The translations under genes were made by a program, and so were the position numbers. DNA of 60,403 nt from a virus (Duplodnaviria > Caudoviricetes): the IMG/VR virus record IMGVR_UViG_3300021335_000018, positions 1 through 60,403 of that record. One strand, 5' to 3'. Within the stretch, counting starts at the first letter, position 1. Each line of letters opens with the position of its first letter. The notes beneath the pieces are model-generated. The model made no database searches, had not been told where the DNA came from, and was given only the letters and a program-made list of their open reading frames with translations. Positions 4,810 through 54,324 of this stretch are shown here, in pieces.

Positions 4810-5547
4810 TTATTTGAAAGGCTTCTCGCCGACTTCTTGCTTGTAAATATCTATACAAGTGTCAAGCCAGGCAGCAAATATATTTTGAACTCTTTGTGTT
4901 CTAATAAGTCCATCATCTGCTAGGTCTTTTTTGATTGTATCGTTATATTTAATAAACAATCGTTGTAGAATGTTTACTTTTTCGTTCCCATCTTTGTCAG
5001 TTCCTGGGAGCTTCCAAAATTCTGCAAATTTTGGAGTAGCACGTTTATTAAATTCTGCAATAAGTGCTTTATAGTATGCACGAGCTTCGTCTGCGTTTAG
5101 ATCTATTTTTTCAGGCACAGGCACCCATGTTGCTATCATACTTAATGTTCCGGTCTTATCTACCTTAGTAGTAACAGGATCTTCTCCTGCTTGTGGTTTT
5201 TTGATATTTGATTTTTTTGCTCTATGCGGTGCTAGTATGTCATAAATTTTTTGCCAATCTAAATTTGGGCCTGCTACACCTGTTTGTATTCCATAAAGTT
5301 GTGCATCAGATGACCAATCTGCAGGACTAACATTACGAGAATTTTGCCCTAAAAGATCATTTAAATCTTGCAATGCGCCATATTTTCGTTCGTCAGTTTT
5401 ACCTTTTAAAAAGTCAGCCGCTAGAAAAGTAAAAATATTAAACCATTCTTGCTGAGTAAATGCTTTCTTTAATGCTTCAGCAGTGTCAATTGAATCTGCT
5501 TCGCCTAGCATCTCTGGCTGTTCATATATGATATCAAAAACGTTCAT
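4810..5547 (-). CDS. Hypothetical, probable internal head protein
   Basis: ORF track; N-terminus MNVFDIIYE..LGEA resembles neighbours. Confidence 0.65.
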   Translation of the reverse strand: MNVFDIIYEQPEMLGEADSIDTAEALKKAFTQQEWFNIFTFLAADFLKGKTDERKYGALQDLNDLLGQNSRNVSPADWSSDAQLYGIQTGVAGPNLDWQKIYDILAPHRAKKSNIKKPQAGEDPVTTKVDKTGTLSMIATWVPVPEKIDLNADEARAYYKALIAEFNKRATPKFAEFWKLPGTDKDGNEKVNILQRLFIKYNDTIKKDLADDGLIRTQRVQNIFAAWLDTCIDIYKQEVGEKPFK

Positions 5548-48972: not shown

Positions 48973-49002
48973 CCTTCTTTTTCGAGATCCCAAACGACTA
49001 CG

Positions 49003-50310
49003 TTAGATTTTCTCGCCGATTTCGAATCCTCGGAAAGTCTTGAATCGGGGAAACCTAAGAGAATAAGTACCGTCTTGATTTTGCGTAATAGCATCTGCTC
49101 GTACCTCTACAAGTTGCCCAATAAGTGAGCCGCGATCACTCCAAAAACTATCACGATCGCTGTCGCTAAACCCGCTACCGCAATTGACCTGGACCATTCG
49201 TCCATCATCTTCTCCAGCGCATACCAACGCTCCCAGGCGTCCTTCGTTTCTTCCTGTTCCTTCTTCAACATCTTTCACCTCTAATGTCACTTCAATAAAT
49301 GGCTTCGCTTTTAGCCATGCATGAGTTCGTTTGCATTCATAAGGAGCATCAACGTCCTTAATCATAACACCTTCATAACCACCGTCTACAGCCGCTTTAT
49401 TTAACGCTACAAAGCGTTCTTGTCCTTCAGGAGTACTAAGGTCTACCTCTTCCCACTCAAGTGCTTGTACATGCTTTAAAATGCTTTCATTTTCTAGTAC
49501 CCAATACTTGACTAAGTTACTGCGATAAGTCTGTGGCTTATTCCATACACCTTTTTGGAAATCTTCTAGTGGAATAAAATCAAACAAGTGTAGAACAGCA
49601 TCTTCACTTTGTACATTATCTTTACGATGTACCTGCTTCATAAGGTCTTGGAAGTTAGCACTCATTACTTCACCGTCTAGTACACAGTCGTAAGGTGCAG
49701 GTTTCTCTGCAAGTACTTGTTCAATCTCTGCAATAATATGCGGAAAGTTATGAAACTGTTTTCCATTACGACTAAACAATTCTACTTTGCCATCACGACA
49801 TACTGCTAGTACACGAACACCATCTAGTTTGATTTCGATCTGCTTCTTGCCTGTCATTTTCTTTTCGTGCTTGGCACTGTCATGAGCAAGAGCACAAGTA
49901 AACACAGGCACAGTACCTGGTGCCACTTTGTTCACAGTTTTTTCACTTACGCCGCAACGTAGGTCTTTGATAAGAATACGACGGTACCAACCGTTCCATT
50001 GCTCTACAGTGCAAGAGCTTTTAACAAGATTAATTGCATCACGGGCTGCATGTCCGGTTAGCTCTCGTGCAATAAGTTTATCTGCCAGTTCTTTGAACAA
50101 AGACCATTCGCATCCCTGTCCTGCCCATTCGCTATCCAGTTCGTCTACCTGCTTAACACCGAAAGTAGTTAACGGATCTAGTGCCATCCGCAATCCATCA
50201 AAGAACTCCGGAAGCCCTTCTTCGTATGCTTCTTTCAAGATTGCTTCTTTTGCAAGACGGCTGTTGTCTTTTTCAAGTTTTTTAATAATATCTTGTGGTT
50301 GTGTTCTCAT
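49003..50310 (-). CDS. ATP-dependent DNA ligase
   Basis: EIKLDGVR, FSRNGK, LDGEV, EGVMIK, WLKAK, SLRFPRF. Confidence 0.95.
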   Translation of the reverse strand: MRTQPQDIIKKLEKDNSRLAKEAILKEAYEEGLPEFFDGLRMALDPLTTFGVKQVDELDSEWAGQGCEWSLFKELADKLIARELTGHAARDAINLVKSSCTVEQWNGWYRRILIKDLRCGVSEKTVNKVAPGTVPVFTCALAHDSAKHEKKMTGKKQIEIKLDGVRVLAVCRDGKVELFSRNGKQFHNFPHIIAEIEQVLAEKPAPYDCVLDGEVMSANFQDLMKQVHRKDNVQSEDAVLHLFDFIPLEDFQKGVWNKPQTYRSNLVKYWVLENESILKHVQALEWEEVDLSTPEGQERFVALNKAAVDGGYEGVMIKDVDAPYECKRTHAWLKAKPFIEVTLEVKDVEEGTGRNEGRLGALVCAGEDDGRMVQVNCGSGFSDSDRDSFWSDRGSLIGQLVEVRADAITQNQDGTYSLRFPRFKTFRGFEIGEKI

Positions 50311-50591
50311 ATTTGCCTCGGTTCTGTGCCTGTTAAAAAATACATTTTACTTATAATAGCATCAACATCTGAAGTTGTCAACCATCCTTTTACTGTATCT
50401 CCAGGATTGGTAACACCCGGAAGTTCACATTGCTCGCCATCTTTAAATACAGCAATTTCGTATAAGCCTTGCTTATTGCCATAGGATGCTTCGTTGTTGA
50501 TAATACTTAGTTCGTAGTTGTCAAACTGAAGTAAGGCTTGTACACCTTTAGGTACATCAGTTTCCAATAATTGAAAGTCTTTTAGTTTCAT
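50307..50591 (-). CDS. Hypothetical phage protein
   Basis: SYG...GLYEIAV motif. Confidence 0.65.
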   Translation of the reverse strand: MKLKDFQLLETDVPKGVQALLQFDNYELSIINNEASYGNKQGLYEIAVFKDGEQCELPGVTNPGDTVKGWLTTSDVDAIISKMYFLTGTEPRQI

Positions 50592-50754
50592 AATATTCTG
50601 GCTCCATATCTAATGATGCAGTAAAGTCGAACACTGTCCATCCTTTAAGTGCATACCAAGTTGCTTGTTTAGGTGTAGCAAGGACGGTAAGTCTATCAGT
50701 AATACTACCGTCCTGCCACTTTTCAAACTCATACAATCGGTGTTCGTAAAGCAT
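50557..50754 (-). CDS. Hypothetical protein
   Basis: ORF track, overlaps neighbours. Confidence 0.45.
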   Translation of the reverse strand: MLYEHRLYEFEKWQDGSITDRLTVLATPKQATWYALKGWTVFDFTASLDMEPEYYETKRLSIIGN

Positions 50755-51253
50755 CTAAGTTCACCGGAGTGTAGTTAATTTGCTCTACACATACACACTT
50801 GTACGGGCCTTCTGGTGAAGGATTGCTGTGAATGTGTCCATGTACGTTAAGCATGTCCTGTCCGTCCCAACGCAACCTTTCAGCAAGTGTCTGTGGGTGC
50901 AACGGCATGTGCGTAAATACAAAATTGTCAATGTTGTACCAATATTGCACATCTTTGAAGAACTGTGCTACATGCTTGATGTTATCATGGTTTCCAAGTG
51001 CAAGTTTTTTCTTACCAGGCAACTTAGCAAAGTTTGCTTCCATCCACTCTACTTTATCCATGCCAAACAGCACATCACCACAGTGAATAACAATGTCACC
51101 GTCTTTCACTGTGTCGTTCCAGTTGTCAAGCATACACTCGTTCATCTGTTCTACAGTAGCAAACGGTCTGATAGGCTTACCTCCGTAATCGTTGAAGGTC
51201 AAAATGCCACTGTGGTTAAAGTGTGTATCGCTAATAATCCAGATGTCTTTCAT
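50729..51253 (-). CDS. Calcineurin-like metallophosphoesterase
   Basis: SDTHF, HCGDV, GNHD, HMP, HGHIH. Confidence 0.9.
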   Translation of the reverse strand: MKDIWIISDTHFNHSGILTFNDYGGKPIRPFATVEQMNECMLDNWNDTVKDGDIVIHCGDVLFGMDKVEWMEANFAKLPGKKKLALGNHDNIKHVAQFFKDVQYWYNIDNFVFTHMPLHPQTLAERLRWDGQDMLNVHGHIHSNPSPEGPYKCVCVEQINYTPVNLDALRTPIV

Positions 51254-51275
51254 GACGCCCTCTAAAATTCTATTG

Positions 51276-51283
51276 TATAAATA
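51276..51283 (+). promoter_or_regulatory. T4-type late promoter box for the plus-strand gene at 51335
   Basis: Exact TATAAATA. Confidence 0.6.
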
Positions 51284-51285
51284 AC

Positions 51286-51314
51286 ATTATACATATTTAA
51301 TAACGTCTTGTCAA
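51286..51314 (-). promoter_or_regulatory. Sigma70-type promoter
   Basis: TTGACA-17-TATAAT. Confidence 0.85.
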
Positions 51315-51334
51315 GAGATTTATAGGAGAAACAT

Positions 51335-51646
51335 ATGAAATCTGTCGTTAGAGTTATCAAGCCTAATTTTTCAACAATTGAAGAGTTTCAGTCAAGCGAT
51401 TTGTACAATCATATTAACGCTGTACAAGGCCCTAAGGATGTTTCTATCGAAGTTGTTAGAGGTACAAACGGCAAGATTGCAGTGATTGCATCTAGCACAA
51501 ATCCAGATATCGACGCTGAGCTAGAAACAGATGTTAGAACAGCAATTCGGAATGGCGGCATCCGCGGTCCACAAGTTGATAGCAAACATACCTTTAATAC
51601 AGACGAAGAACTCCAGACCTGGAAAGACAGCTGGGTTGCATCTTAA
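51335..51646 (+). CDS. Hypothetical protein
   Basis: RBS AGGAG; converges on the tRNA cluster. Confidence 0.7.
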   Translation: MKSVVRVIKPNFSTIEEFQSSDLYNHINAVQGPKDVSIEVVRGTNGKIAVIASSTNPDIDAELETDVRTAIRNGGIRGPQVDSKHTFNTDEELQTWKDSWVAS

Positions 51647-51647
51647 T

Positions 51648-51741
51648 TGGTAGTCCCGGGGGGATTCGAACCCCCATCGCTCTCTAATCTGGAGACTGTG
51701 CCGAGTATAAGCCGGGTGTTTTACCGTTAAACTACGGGACT
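51648..51741 (-). tRNA. tRNA-Ile(UAU) with long variable arm
   Basis: Acceptor AGTCCCG/CGGGACT-A-CCA, loop CT-TAT-AC, GTTCGAAT T-loop, ~24 nt variable region. Confidence 0.8.
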
Positions 51742-51744
51742 ATA

Positions 51745-51820
51745 TGGTGCGCCTGGAGAGATTCGAACTCCCAATCAACCCGTTATGAGCGGGGGGCTTT
51801 AACCGTTAAGCTACAAGCGC
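51745..51820 (-). tRNA. tRNA with CAU anticodon (Ile2 likely, elongator Met possible)
   Basis: GCGCTTG/CAGGCGC-A-CCA, loop CT-CAT-AA, C4-G69; G1-C72 paired, so not an initiator. Confidence 0.88.
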
Positions 51821-51826
51821 ATATTT

Positions 51827-51902
51827 TGGAGTGGGTGAGGAGACTCGAACTCCCATAACACGGATTTGCAATCCGGTCCGTAACCATTCCGGACACACCC
51901 AC
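51827..51902 (-). tRNA. tRNA-Cys(GCA)
   Basis: Loop TT-GCA-AA, U73, CCA end. Confidence 0.92.
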
Positions 51903-51906
51903 AAAT

Positions 51907-51980
51907 TGGCATAGGTGAAGGGAATCGAACCCCTATCTTCAGTTTTGGAGACTGACATGTTACCATTACACCACACCCAT
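51907..51980 (-). tRNA. tRNA-Trp(CCA)
   Basis: Loop CT-CCA-AA, G73, CCA end. Confidence 0.92.
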
Positions 51981-52016
51981 AAAAAAAGCCCCTAACATTA
52001 TTAGTGCTAGGGGCTT
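51981..52016 (-). terminator. Intrinsic terminator (attenuator) abutting the 5' end of tRNA-Trp
   Basis: AAGCCCCUAGCA-CUAAUAA-UGUUAGGGGC-UUUUUUU. Confidence 0.85.
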
Positions 52017-52045
52017 ATCTTAAATTACTTTTTCAAAAAGTCGTG

Positions 52046-52105
52046 TTAAGACATACCCCCTTTTGGTGGCCAACATATTATACATATTGTGTTAGTCTTA
52101 ATCAC
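52046..52105 (-). CDS. Leader peptide MIKTNTICIICWPPKGGMS (19 aa)
   Basis: RBS AAGGA, then GTG ATT AAG ACT AAC ACA ATA TGT ATA ATA TGT TGG CCA CCA AAA GGG GGT ATG TCT TAA. Confidence 0.75.
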   Translation of the reverse strand: MIKTNTICIICWPPKGGMS

Positions 52106-52136
52106 GTATCTATTCCTTCTTTTTTAGTATTTTTAT

Positions 52137-52165
52137 ACTATACTATCTTTATTTTGCGTTGTCAA
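52137..52165 (-). promoter_or_regulatory. Sigma70-type promoter of the leader/tRNA operon
   Basis: TTGACA-17-TATAGT. Confidence 0.8.
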
Positions 52166-52322
52166 CCACTTTTGGTTCACATCTTGCTTTTTTTCCGCAG
52201 TGGGGACAATGAAATGTTGTCCGGTCTATGCAATAGTGTTCTTCCATTGTAGCAAAAGTAAACCAGCCCTTGCAATTACTGCAAGTTAAGTGCCAGATTA
52301 TTTCTTTTACTGCTTTGAACAT
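52149..52322 (-). CDS. Small Zn-ribbon protein (57 aa)
   Basis: Manual translation MFKAVKEIIWHLTCSNC...FHCPHCGKK. Confidence 0.65.
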   Translation of the reverse strand: MFKAVKEIIWHLTCSNCKGWFTFATMEEHYCIDRTTFHCPHCGKKARCEPKVVDNAK

Positions 52323-52424
52323 TTACATACACAAATCTTCGTACTTAGTAGTGTATACTCTATGTTCGCTCATATCTCTCGATTCAGCTTTGCTGTTAAA
52401 AAGAGAAAGTAGAAAATTAAACAT
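52323..52424 (-). CDS. Small hypothetical (33 aa)
   Basis: Manual translation MFNFLLSLFNSKAESRDMSEHRVYTTKYEDLCM; TAAATA box upstream. Confidence 0.45.
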   Translation of the reverse strand: MFNFLLSLFNSKAESRDMSEHRVYTTKYEDLCM

Positions 52425-52614
52425 TGTACTGCCTTTCAATGTATTTAGCATTGGTGCGCCTGGAGGGACTTGAACCCCCACGCCGTAAAGCACTAGAACC
52501 TAAATCTAGCGTGTCTACCAATTTCACCACAGGCGCTTTTCTTTTAACTCGACAAATAGGGCAGAACCTGCCTTCCGGCAATTCAAAATTACATTCTGGA
52601 CATTTTTCTACCAT
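52417..52614 (-). CDS. Small Zn-ribbon ORF reading through tRNA-Leu
   Basis: RBS AAGGAG; CPEC...CPIC; no stop before the tRNA. Confidence 0.5.
   Translation of the reverse strand: MVEKCPECNFELPEGRFCPICRVKRKAPVVKLVDTLDLGSSALRRGGSSPSRRTNAKYIERQYNV
52452..52536 (-). tRNA. tRNA-Leu(UAG)
   Basis: Loop TT-TAG-GT, variable arm, A73-CCA. Confidence 0.92.
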
Positions 52615-52630
52615 ATTTGTCTCCTTAAAA

Positions 52631-52706
52631 TGGTGCTGGTTGAGAGACTCGAACTCCCGACCTGAGGTTTACAAAACCCCTGCTCTACCAACTGAGCTAA
52701 ACCAGC
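52631..52706 (-). tRNA. tRNA-Thr(UGU)
   Basis: Loop TT-TGT-AA, CCA end. Confidence 0.93.
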
Positions 52707-52728
52707 GTGTGTTATTTAACATCAAGTA

Positions 52729-52802
52729 TGGAGCGGGTAAGGAGAATCGAACTCCTATCCTCAGCTTGGAAGGCTGCGATAATACCATTATACTATACCC
52801 GC
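52729..52802 (-). tRNA. tRNA-Gly(UCC)
   Basis: Loop CT-TCC-AA, U73, CCA end. Confidence 0.93.
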
Positions 52803-52803
52803 A

Positions 52804-52893
52804 TGGCAGAGAGGAAGGGATTCGAACCCTCGGAACGCTTACACGTTCAACACCTTAGCAGGGTGCCGCTTTCGACCACTCAGCCACCTCTCT
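52804..52893 (-). tRNA. tRNA-Ser(GCU)
   Basis: Loop CT-GCT-AA, long variable arm, G73, CCA end. Confidence 0.93.
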
Positions 52894-52900
52894 GTATTTT

Positions 52901-53347
52901 TTACTTATTGAACCTCAGTGTCTGTTTACGACCGTTGTGATAAAACGTTACTGTGCTATGACTATATACTTCACGAGCTGTTTCTTCATACCGTGTTTCT
53001 ATACTGCATTGCCGTTCTGTTCGATAACCAGTTACGCCTTGCTTGCTTTGATTCTTATCAGCGGCAATCATACCACCAATGACAGCACCAGCGGCTGCAC
53101 CATTGTCTTTGTTAGTGACACCTTTACCAATAAGTCCTCCAATGATCATTCCGCCTAGTACATCACCTGCACTAGCGCCGCCGCCAACATTGCCATAAAT
53201 AGGAGTTTGTACATCTTTACAAACTTCAACTCTATACGGCGTTTGTTCAATTACAGTTTTAAAATGATCTTGGATACTTGCAGATGTATCAGCAATAGCC
53301 GGAGTGGTAATTGCCAATAAACCTGCGATTAAAAACATTTTTTTCAT
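52901..53347 (-). CDS. Secreted glycine-zipper protein
   Basis: Signal peptide; GGMIIGGLIG...GAAAGAVIGG. Confidence 0.8.
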   Translation of the reverse strand: MKKMFLIAGLLAITTPAIADTSASIQDHFKTVIEQTPYRVEVCKDVQTPIYGNVGGGASAGDVLGGMIIGGLIGKGVTNKDNGAAAGAVIGGMIAADKNQSKQGVTGYRTERQCSIETRYEETAREVYSHSTVTFYHNGRKQTLRFNK

Positions 53348-53350
53348 TGT

Positions 53351-53935
53351 TTATTCTCCTGTGACAATCTCATAGATTTCTTTCCAGTTTAAAACACGTC
53401 GACATCTATCATCATCCATGTTGTATCCGTGTTCCATAACCAAAGGACGCAGACCAACCTCTTGACCATGTATAGCATTTTCGACCTTGTCCTCAACCCA
53501 CCATAGGTTGCTACCTTCGAACTGTTTAAGAACTTTATCTTTATCTGCTCCAGTACCTAGACAAATTACATCAGTAAATGTGTCATCACCAAATAGTTTA
53601 TTAATATTTTTCTTACGCAGTTTCTGTGCATATTTATTCGTACTTAAACTGGTGATACAAATAAATTTCCAACCTTCATCTGATAGTCTAGTAACATACT
53701 CTACTGCATCACGTAAGGGAGGAAGAAACCCAATCATCGCACTTTCGTTAAAATGTTTGATCATTGTTTTTCCTTGCTTGTCAGAAATATCATATCTGGC
53801 ACCGATACTATAAAGTAAGTTACCCTTCGATACCTGAGCGAACCCGTGTTCTTCCATAAACAAATTGAAAGCATATTCCCAATTAAAAAGTACACCGTCT
53901 GCATCTACAAGCATTGTTTTTTTGATTTTAGTCAT
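53351..53935 (-). CDS. HAD-family nucleotidase-like protein
   Basis: LVDADGVL, ITS, WVEDK. Confidence 0.8.
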   Translation of the reverse strand: MTKIKKTMLVDADGVLFNWEYAFNLFMEEHGFAQVSKGNLLYSIGARYDISDKQGKTMIKHFNESAMIGFLPPLRDAVEYVTRLSDEGWKFICITSLSTNKYAQKLRKKNINKLFGDDTFTDVICLGTGADKDKVLKQFEGSNLWWVEDKVENAIHGQEVGLRPLVMEHGYNMDDDRCRRVLNWKEIYEIVTGE

Positions 53936-53967
53936 TTACTGCCTTTTTCTTGCCTTATTATGTGTGT

Positions 53968-53996
53968 ATTATAGTATACTTTTTACTTTAAGTCAA
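53968..53996 (-). promoter_or_regulatory. Sigma70-type promoter
   Basis: TTGACT-17-TATAAT. Confidence 0.8.
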
Positions 53997-54324
53997 CTGT
54001 TTTTTTGTCTAAAACCTCGACATTTTTCACACGATCGTAACGGAAACTGCGAAAGCCATTACTTTCAATTGCCCATACTGCAACAACTTTATCAGATATT
54101 TCACGTACTTTCTTTTGGCTTAGAGGATCGTCCTTTTTTGCAGGCGGCAAAAAACTTTCGATTAATGTGCAAGGCATTACCCTTTCTTCGCCATTTAATT
54201 TAGTAAATGTCACCTTGACTATTTCTTCTTTTAAAAGATCATAAAGCTCTTCTTTGGTAGGAATACCTTTTAAGTTTGCTACTGTATCACTTACGTTTAT
54301 CGACGACTTTGTCTGCGAATCCAT
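53983..54324 (-). CDS. WYL-like/SH3-fold protein
   Basis: [17 protein letters not shown]...VW......FRSFR. Confidence 0.7.

Follow-up and report, generated by a model that had tools for sequence, protein, structure and literature searches.

What do a short open reading frame (ORF) and an intrinsic terminator do between a phage promoter and the tRNA genes that follow it? This question is raised by a locus on the minus strand of a 60,403-nucleotide (nt) stretch of viral DNA (hereafter the window), positions 1 to 60,403 of the IMG/VR record IMGVR_UViG_3300021335_000018 (Duplodnaviria; Caudoviricetes), where a leader with these parts precedes the genes for tRNA-Trp, tRNA-Cys, tRNA(CAU), and tRNA-Ile(UAU). 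An earlier note on this DNA had recognized in the leader the architecture of the trp, his, and ilv attenuators, placed here before tRNA genes. In our analysis, that proposal was supported by the conservation of the ORF, by the helices, and by the covariation between leader codons and downstream tRNAs, and we consider it likely that the leader is a trp/his-type ribosome-mediated transcription attenuator, which would exert feedback control on the phage tRNA supply.

Anatomy and conservation of the leader

The leader element is compact (about 190 nt), and its parts, together with the tRNA genes behind it, occupy the following positions of the window:

52137 to 52165, minus strand: sigma-70-type promoter TTGACA-17-TATAGT (11 of 12 consensus matches), dedicated to the leader
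52114 to 52119, minus strand: ribosome-binding site (RBS) GAAGGA, 8 nt ahead of the GTG start (52105)
52046 to 52105, minus strand: leader ORF MIKTNTICIICWPPKGGMS, with a GTG start, 19 codons, and a TAA stop (52048-52046)
52064 to 52087, minus strand: codon run ATA TGT ATA ATA TGT TGG CCA CCA, read from the sequence
51981 to 52016, minus strand: intrinsic terminator, with a 12-pair stem (52016-51986), a 7-nt loop, and a U7 run ending at 51981
51907 to 51980, minus strand: tRNA-Trp(CCA), always the first gene behind the leader
51827 to 51902, minus strand: tRNA-Cys(GCA)
51745 to 51820, minus strand: tRNA(CAU), called as Met by ARAGORN
51648 to 51741, minus strand: tRNA-Ile(UAU), 94 nt, with a long variable region

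All of these parts had been described in the earlier note, and the promoter, the RBS and ORF with its Ile-Cys-Ile-Ile-Cys-Trp codon run, the terminator, and the order and places of the four tRNA genes were all recovered as described. Since the U-run of the terminator ends at 51981 and tRNA-Trp starts at 51980, there is no space for another promoter between the two. A candidate second promoter inside the leader (TATAAT within ATA-TGT-ATA-ATA) was rejected, its -35 element matching at only 3 of 6 positions and the sequence being lost in relatives (ATATTAC and others). We propose as sensing codons the run at 52064 to 52087 up to and including TGG. Of the 17 inner leader codons, 6 are cognate to one of the four tRNAs encoded downstream. 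The combined share of ATA, Cys, and Trp codons in 50 long ORFs from the window is 3.7%, which puts the probability of at least 6 of them among 17 at 2.4e-5.

Relatives of the leader were collected by three routes: viral contigs found through the neighboring phosphoesterase (of 117 candidate stretches, 115 were confirmed and 80 retained), exact matches to a 23-mer from the leader (9 contigs), and two motif scans returning at least 118 rows each, so that the totals of sources and leaders are lower bounds. At least 320 sources, mostly aquatic contigs, were obtained in all. A profile built from the first alignment gave at least 225 near-full leader matches, 122 of them distinct, with 89 distinct peptides; the first, smaller set comprised 64 distinct leaders, the alignment 61, and the fold comparison 63.

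The leader ORF is open from the conserved start to the conserved stop in 113 of the 122 distinct leaders, and two more, of a divergent type, carry a stop of their own, so that the frame is kept in 115 of 122; the other 7 are frameshifted or stop early. In the first set, the ORF was kept in 61 of 64 leaders, 7 of these ORFs having been read from the peptides (an ACG variant lying outside the motif). The lengths vary (19 codons in 51 leaders, 20 in 34, 21 in 9, and 22 in 19, with a few of 17 and 18) between the same start and stop, which indicates insertions and deletions in multiples of three, and in most leaders the stop codon, TAA or TGA, lies within the sequence GTCTTRA. Loss of the ORF in relatives had been named in the earlier note as evidence that would speak against an attenuator; what the relatives present is its retention, and we infer that the leader is translated.

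Furthermore, across the 61 aligned leaders, the -35 TTGAC is invariant, the -10 element is TATAGT, TATTAT, or TATATT, and the RBS follows the consensus AAGGAA with unchanged spacing. These data bear on the simplest explanation of the locus, namely, that the terminator does no more than shield the tRNA cluster against transcription coming from upstream and that both the ORF and the codon match arose by accident. Short ORFs and promoter-like hexamers are indeed common in AT-rich DNA, and in the region from 49000 to 54000 we counted 13 promoter-like sites against 11.6 expected. However, accident does not account for a reading frame kept in nearly all leaders or for a codon run of such low chance probability, and an insulated cluster would find no room for a promoter of its own between terminator and tRNA-Trp. 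Moreover, the neighboring phosphoesterase is just 58 to 88% identical among the relatives, yet the promoter, RBS, start, stop, segment 2 (defined below), helices, and terminator are conserved. We therefore regard mere insulation as extremely improbable.

Alternative folds of the leader RNA

The earlier note had also described mutually exclusive helices in the leader and had suggested folding positions 52130-51975 with and without the part that a ribosome would occlude. The minimum free energy (MFE) fold of this region combines the 1:2 helix with an inner hairpin and the terminator (3:4) and has an energy of -44.2 kcal/mol compared to -26.6 +/- 3.3 kcal/mol for 200 shuffles (z -5.4; no shuffle was as good), and the 2:3 helix appeared once the 5' part was masked. 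The elements involved are these:

52095 to 52106, minus strand: segment 1, which contains the start codon and pairs with 52052-42 in the MFE fold
52071 to 52089, minus strand: inner hairpin in the loop of the 1:2 helix, which holds the variable codons (from folds and alignment)
52042 to 52060, minus strand: segment 2 GGGGGUAUGUCUUAACACG, which contains the stop codon and has segment 1 or segment 3 as a partner
52027 to 52041, minus strand: small A/U hairpin ACUUUUU-GA-AAAAGU that separates segments 2 and 3 and is enclosed by the 2:3 helix when the stalled state is folded
52009 to 52023, minus strand: segment 3 UUAAGAUAAGCCCCU, at once the antiterminator partner of segment 2 and the 5' arm of the terminator

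In the window, the TAA codon (52048-52046) falls within segment 2 (52060-52042), which would thus be masked by a ribosome that has reached the stop. The GACTTT of the small A/U hairpin is nearly invariant in the 61-leader alignment, and its U-tract, placed just 3' of the 1:2 hairpin, may act as a pause that couples the ribosome to the polymerase.

For the terminated state (1:2, inner hairpin, and 3:4), 87.3% of the cells of the 61-leader alignment are paired, compared to 35 to 47% in slid controls, and a covariation score of 0.159 was obtained, which none of 500 shuffles reached (0.100 +/- 0.004). The clearest covarying pair joins the first base of the start codon (A or G) with U or C in segment 2 (AU in 44 leaders, GC in 17, unpaired in none). 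The terminator helix is paired in 95.5% of cells, and its two loop-proximal pairs vary on both sides (CG 31 and UA 23 in one, AU 34 and GC 6 in the other); in the inner hairpin, the outer 5 pairs are paired in 90% of cells, with 3 pairs changed on both sides. Pairing in the 2:3 helix amounts to 84.4% of cells, compared to 28 to 66% for slid partners.

In particular, we could observe that the GGGG of segment 2 is invariant in the 61 leaders, even though the codon that carries it is GGG, AGG, TGG, or CGG (Gly, Arg, or Trp); the codon pairs are GGG-GGT in 23 leaders, AGG-GGT in 21, TGG-GGT in 8, CGG-GGT in 5, and TGG-GGA in 3. Since GGGG persists as the codon meaning changes, it is conserved as RNA rather than as protein.

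To represent a stalled ribosome, the covered part of the leader was removed (with the Trp codon in the A site) and the RNA was cut before the 3' arm of the terminator. Under this model, 62 of 63 leaders have the terminator CCCC paired with the segment 2 GGGG. The median energies of the competing structures are nearly equal (1:2, -18.7 kcal/mol; 2:3 state, -19.4 kcal/mol; 3:4, -19.3 kcal/mol), and that of the 2:3 state with segment 2 shuffled is -10.5 kcal/mol (z -2.9). The full leader folds into the terminator in all 63 cases. The same switch is seen in a divergent subgroup (L040 type), where segments 2, 3, and 4 have changed together (CCGGGGG, CCCCCGG, and CGGGGG); its leaders keep the Trp codon, two Cys codons, and two Pro codons, with tRNA-Trp and tRNA-Cys downstream.

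A unit running from promoter to terminator could also be an independent gene, its product a small RNA (sRNA) or a peptide of 19 to 22 residues with a separate function, and the tRNAs would then be expressed through a constitutive leak past the terminator or upstream transcription. A strong promoter, a transcript of about 150 nt, and a strong terminator do correspond to the anatomy of an sRNA gene, the subthreshold Rfam matches of the leader are mostly terminator-bearing sRNAs, and the peptide ends M-x-K-T and G-M-S are conserved. However, it is segments 1 and 2 that encode these peptide ends, which vary in keeping with base pairing and not with amino acids. Moreover, such a gene would give segment 2 no reason to mimic the 3' arm of the terminator in 62 of 63 leaders, it was never seen apart from tRNA-Trp in the loci examined, and it offers no place for the covariation of codons and tRNAs described below. 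We thus consider an independent gene quite improbable.

Leader codons, tRNA cargo, and surroundings

The leader is closely tied to tRNA-Trp. Among 132 tRNA-Trp calls in the collected loci, 125 have a leader match upstream; of the other seven, three lie too near the end of the locus to tell, and the remaining four represent two distinct upstream sequences, one being a divergent leader below the threshold and the other belonging to an 85-nt ARAGORN call in a different cluster. A terminator-like hairpin within 30 nt upstream occurs in 50 of 64 distinct upstream regions of tRNA-Trp, compared to none of 296 regions upstream of all other tRNAs; the 14 tRNA-Trp regions without it include relatives that carry an additional element of about 90 nt after the terminator. 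Behind tRNA-Trp, the cargo varies and includes tRNAs for Cys, Pro(UGG), Ile(UAU), CAU, Ser(UGA), Gln, Tyr, Arg, Glu, and others.

The leader codons change with this cargo. In the loci with a complete cluster, to which all of the following tables refer (the Fisher and permutation tests ignore relatedness), at least two ATA codons were found in 14 of 14 leaders followed by tRNA-Ile(UAU) or tRNA(CAU) and in 1 of 96 leaders without either (P = 8e-17). At least one Cys codon was lacking in 17 leaders and present in 27 when tRNA-Cys was absent, the corresponding counts being 1 and 68 when it was present (P = 1e-7). Given in the same order (codons lacking/present), the counts for at least two Gln codons were 89/13 without and 0/8 with tRNA-Gln (P = 5e-7); for at least two UCR codons, 90/10 without and 4/8 with tRNA-Ser(UGA) (P = 3e-5); for at least two Tyr codons, 102/5 without and 1/2 with tRNA-Tyr (P = 0.01); and for CGN codons, 83/11 without and 8/8 with tRNA-Arg (P = 0.001). 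No association with cargo was found for Glu, Lys, and Gly codons in these loci.

Because the tables do not take relatedness into account, a tree was built from the columns from the promoter to codon 3, segments 2 to 4, and tRNA-Trp, leaving out the variable codons, and independent pairs were counted on it. On supported branches, ATA gave 8 such pairs, 7.9 changing in the same way as the tRNA and none in the opposite way (sign test, P = 0.008); in the smaller first set, 4 of 4 pairs went the same way. The pairs changing in the same and in the opposite way were 4.6 to 0 for Cys, 5.0 to 0 for Ser, 2 to 0 for Tyr, 1.4 to 0 for Gln, and 2.7 to 0.1 for Arg. When the tRNA sets were shuffled among 56 loci, 113.5 +/- 6.8 codons were matched, compared to 176 observed, a value that none of 10,000 shuffles reached; the same shuffle with Trp, Pro, and Cys left out gave 30.0 +/- 6.0 compared to 80 observed (0 of 10,000). 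A close relative illustrates the pattern: locus L009 shares 72 of 74 bases of tRNA-Trp with the window and only 12 of 18 bases of the variable codons, and it is without tRNA(CAU) and tRNA-Ile(UAU), both of which are present in the window. It should be added that the variable codons form a conserved hairpin, so that a codon change needs a compensating change on the other arm, and a match between codons and tRNAs is therefore harder to reach by drift. The earlier note had predicted such covariation, which holds for ATA, Cys, Gln, Ser(UCR), Tyr, and CGN codons and fails for Pro; it had also named, as an outcome that would refute the idea, homologous clusters that keep the terminator and lose the match, and the relatives came out in favor of the idea.

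The tRNA(CAU) deserves attention in this regard. All 5 of the loci that carry it have a leader with at least two ATA codons, some of them without tRNA-Ile(UAU), and from this link it may be of the AUA-reading Ile2 type, formed after lysidine modification. Its acceptor stem has C4-G69 but U5-G68, so that by the identity determinants of such tRNAs it may be either Met or Ile2. As for tRNA-Ile(UAU), ARAGORN assigns it a variable region of about 24 nt (TCTC...GAGA, a possible short arm), which is unusual for a tRNA-Ile, and the length of 94 nt recurs in the relatives L029, L030, and L086.

The behavior of the Pro codons raises the possibility that the same hardware responds to another signal, the Trp-(Cys)-Pro(-Pro) core acting as a nascent-chain arrest site or a site of slow peptide bond formation; the switch would then report EF-P activity, the supply of tryptophan or other amino acids, or the general translation state of the infected cell. 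In agreement with this, Trp is found in 55 of 55 distinct peptides, being followed by Pro or Cys-Pro in 54 and with Pro-Pro in 36, and the Pro codons are constant and independent of tRNA-Pro. Furthermore, WPPP is among the strong XPPP stallers in Escherichia coli (PMC4176338, PMC11669330). However, an arrest site leaves unexplained the ATA, Cys, Gln, Ser, and Tyr codons that follow the cargo. The sequence W-C-P-P is found in roughly half of the leaders, and CPPP has been reported to be the weakest context (PMC4176338); in place of the second Pro, S, L, T, I, K, or E is often present. In addition, judging from the geometry suggested by the folds, a ribosome at Pro-Pro in the window leader would cover part of the GGGG and so favor termination. 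The third positions of the Pro codons vary freely, and CCNCC is also able to pair with GGGG. On balance, we hold an arrest signal to be unlikely.

Several observations weigh against an attenuator tuned to its tRNA cargo. Pro codons are nearly constant in the leaders and show no association with tRNA-Pro (lacking/present, 16/49 without and 13/36 with the tRNA; P = 0.83), their independent pairs being split between 1.7 in the same way and 1.5 in the opposite way. In the modeled window leader, a stall at a Pro codon would already cover part of the GGGG, which may be the reason why these codons do not follow their tRNA. Locus L066 clearly departs from the pattern, its leader containing three ATA codons and its downstream genes being only those for tRNA-Trp and tRNA-Cys, and many leaders with Cys, Gln, or Ser codons are without the matching tRNA. 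There is a single Trp codon, though tRNA-Trp is the invariant cargo, and the variable codons are also bound to keep the RNA hairpin, a constraint that is independent of decoding. The tree of the flanks is short (226 columns in its first build) and looks mosaic. With regard to the helices, the mutually exclusive structures and the compensatory changes expected from the earlier note were found for 1:2 and 3:4, which are present in the MFE fold and covary, whereas for 2:3 the complementarity is conserved without significant covariation (score 0.128 versus 0.122 in shuffles, reached by 33 of 500). Both strands of this helix are too conserved to covary, which would be expected, though it is no proof, if each of them has two partners. 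Finally, when the 3' arm is present and segment 1 is masked, the terminator remains the favored equilibrium structure in 59 of 63 leaders, so that antitermination would need to be kinetic, as it is in the trp operon.

Some elements accompany the leader in individual relatives. Between the leader terminator and tRNA-Trp, an additional element of about 78 to 90 nt occurs in L034 (5680-5775), L085, L055, L031, and L029, and L046 and L059 carry a variant of it. Three small hairpins closed by a 10-bp stem give the element a cloverleaf-like arrangement (-25.8 kcal/mol), and a T/A run follows. Neither ARAGORN nor Rfam gave a call for it; a tRNA that has decayed or serves as a decoy is one possible identity, and a second control element is another. 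In L085, a manA RNA motif (RF01745) is located immediately ahead of the leader promoter (2718-2928; 58 bits, threshold 55.2); in L034, the motif is below the threshold (5035-5243; 49.6 bits), and Rfam found none in the window. Just upstream of the leader in L170 (143-242), ARAGORN called a 100-nt "tRNA-Stop" with the anticodon UUA, possibly either a suppressor-like tRNA or a false call.

The window itself is a 60-kb part of an uncultured-virus record with a completeness estimate of 17%. The neighbors of the locus are phage nucleotide metabolism genes (DNA ligase, metallophosphoesterase, a 5'-nucleotidase-like protein, and a ClpP-like protease), and the DNA ligase is at most about 36% identical to that of any GenBank phage. 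Convergent on the tRNA cluster is a 103-amino-acid ORF (51335-51646, plus strand) with a good RBS and no match in Pfam or PHROG, whose stop and the 3' end of tRNA-Ile are 1 base apart, no terminator separating them. Sigma-70 consensus promoters are found on the minus strand before the phosphoesterase gene (51286-51314; 12 of 12 matches) and before the 5'-nucleotidase-like gene (53968-53996; 11 of 12), and these perfect or near-perfect sequences suggest a host with a standard sigma-70. A second tRNA cluster (52452-52893, minus strand; Ser-GCU, Gly-UCC, Thr-UGU, and Leu-UAG), directly behind a 148-amino-acid ORF, has neither leader nor terminator; the attenuator-like arrangement is confined to the Trp-led cluster.

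Among cultured phages, megablast of 51640-52460 gave no match and blastn gave matches to tRNA parts only, in 12 records. A search of bacterial genome contigs for the pattern of segment 2 and the terminator arm gave 0 matches, and no host or prophage copy was found there. Judged by the sequences retrieved, the leader element belongs to a family of uncultured marine phages. One search matched 20 sequencing runs, 6 of which were RNA libraries with small shares, and four RNA runs were compared. An RNA-library contig matches 51671-51903 exactly (parts of tRNA-Ile(UAU), tRNA(CAU), and tRNA-Cys), a second covers the leader of a relative from the -35 element through tRNA-Trp, and a DNase-treated RNA library contains a contig at 52132-52306; since these contigs are assembled, may derive from DNA, and do not allow ends or levels to be read, we draw from them no inference on expression.

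Proposed mechanism and its meaning for phage tRNAs

From the parts, their conservation, the alternative pairings, and the covariation of codons with tRNAs, we infer that a stall-dependent switch operates and that read-through is regulated. It is possible to hypothesize the following course of events. Transcription would start from the dedicated promoter, and a ribosome would load on the leader ORF. Without translation, segment 1, with the start codon, would pair with segment 2, the 3:4 helix would form, and the polymerase would stop at 51981, one base ahead of tRNA-Trp. With smooth translation, the ribosome at the stop codon would cover segment 2, and again the terminator would form. A ribosome held at codons 5 to 12 (in the window, at ATA, TGT, or TGG) would instead keep segment 1 from pairing and leave segment 2 free, and its GGGG could capture the CCCC in the 5' arm of the terminator ahead of the synthesis of the 3' arm; with 2:3 formed, the polymerase would read through into tRNA-Trp, tRNA-Cys, tRNA(CAU), and tRNA-Ile(UAU). 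Since the tRNA products decode the stall codons, this would amount to a negative feedback on decoding capacity, with tRNA synthesis switched on by slow reading of the matching codons and switched off by fast reading.

The leader resembles the enterobacterial attenuators (trpL, hisL, thrL, pheL, leuL, and ilvL) in having, close to the promoter, a short ORF that is preceded by an RBS and contains clustered sensing codons, in its three overlapping helices (1:2, 2:3, and 3:4) of similar stability, as is the case for the helix energies of trp, in a stop codon placed so that the terminating ribosome covers segment 2, and in an intrinsic terminator directly ahead of the controlled genes. However, different from those attenuators, it stands before four tRNA genes and not before biosynthetic enzymes, and it is phage borne. 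Its sensing codons are mixed (Ile-AUA, Cys, and Trp, with Gln, Ser, and Tyr in relatives), include only one Trp codon, and change with the cargo; they lie in the inner hairpin of the 1:2 loop and not in segment 1, which in the phage leader holds the start codon. In Rfam, the leader scored below the gathering thresholds of the known families (Thr_leader [RF00506], 25.1 versus 55; His_leader, 20.9 versus 49; Phe_leader, 15.4 versus 55; Trp_leader, 14.4 versus 41), the matches above the threshold in the window being tRNAs only and those to leaders and sRNAs falling far below it. On its sequence, then, the leader is no member of any Rfam leader family.

Other systems share single features with the phage leader. 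The pheM leader before pheST is an attenuator of the phenylalanyl-tRNA synthetase operon and, like the phage leader, acts on a component of the decoding machinery rather than on biosynthesis; different from it, pheM controls a synthetase, uses one codon type, and is chromosomal. T-box riboswitches also choose between terminator and antiterminator in a leader RNA, reporting on a specific tRNA, but they bind the uncharged tRNA through a specifier codon and the T-box sequence, with no ribosome, whereas the phage leader has a conserved ORF; a permissive Rfam scan of 51960-52180 found no T-box among 30 matches up to E = 5. Arrest peptides (WPPP, SecM, and TnaC) have in common with the phage leader a short ORF and a conserved Trp-Pro(-Pro), but the phage peptide has only two prolines, often one, frequently has Cys, the weak context, as the residue ahead of them, and varies in its remainder with the tRNA cargo.

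To our knowledge, the leader-peptide attenuators described so far all control genes of amino acid biosynthesis or synthetase genes. Our literature search, whose coverage excludes most papers of the 1980s and older subscription literature, found no leader-peptide attenuator described before tRNA genes and nothing on the regulation of phage tRNA genes; the tRNA-Phe genes of E. coli are reported to have been considered from this angle. The class of mechanism is thus a known one; what appears new is its proposed deployment by a phage ahead of tRNA genes, with a set of sensing codons that shifts with the cargo, a proposal that comparative evidence supports well.

Attenuators respond to the amount and modification of tRNA, besides the amino acid, as the genetics of the his operon, derepressed when tRNA-His is lowered in amount or modification, indicates. 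A more tentative extension of the attenuator reading, which we regard as possible and no better than doubtful, is that the leader is a rewritable codon sensor in which the few codons of the inner hairpin have been edited in each lineage to match the cargo, so that the cluster fires only if the host fails to decode exactly these codons. The failure might come from a shortage of tRNAs for rare codons, from host shutoff, or from tRNA-cleaving or tRNA-silencing immunity, and the leader would then form an on-demand tRNA replacement circuit. The earlier note had suggested as the trigger a host tRNA cut by a defense nuclease, which would give the leader an antidefense role; this is possible but speculative. 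Several reports describe phage tRNAs as countering tRNA-targeting immunity (PMC10264068, PMC11555353, PMC11464382).

Why phages carry tRNAs is debated, codon compensation and escape from tRNA-targeting defense being among the explanations discussed (PMC10264068, PMC11555353, PMC11464382, PMC11726456). If the leader is an attenuator as we propose, at least some phages would meter their tRNA output against the real decoding capacity of the cell, and classical attenuation could have the tRNA itself as its end product. The leader codons would also offer a proxy, readable from sequence, for the codons that limit translation during infection. If, in addition, the tentative sensor reading holds, they could reveal the decoding identity of ambiguous phage tRNAs, such as AUA for the tRNA(CAU) of the window, and could point to the host tRNAs that run short or come under attack in the sea. 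With its compact size and an apparent rule (the codon in the leader, the tRNA behind it), the element is directly testable and may prove useful as a sensor of tRNA availability.

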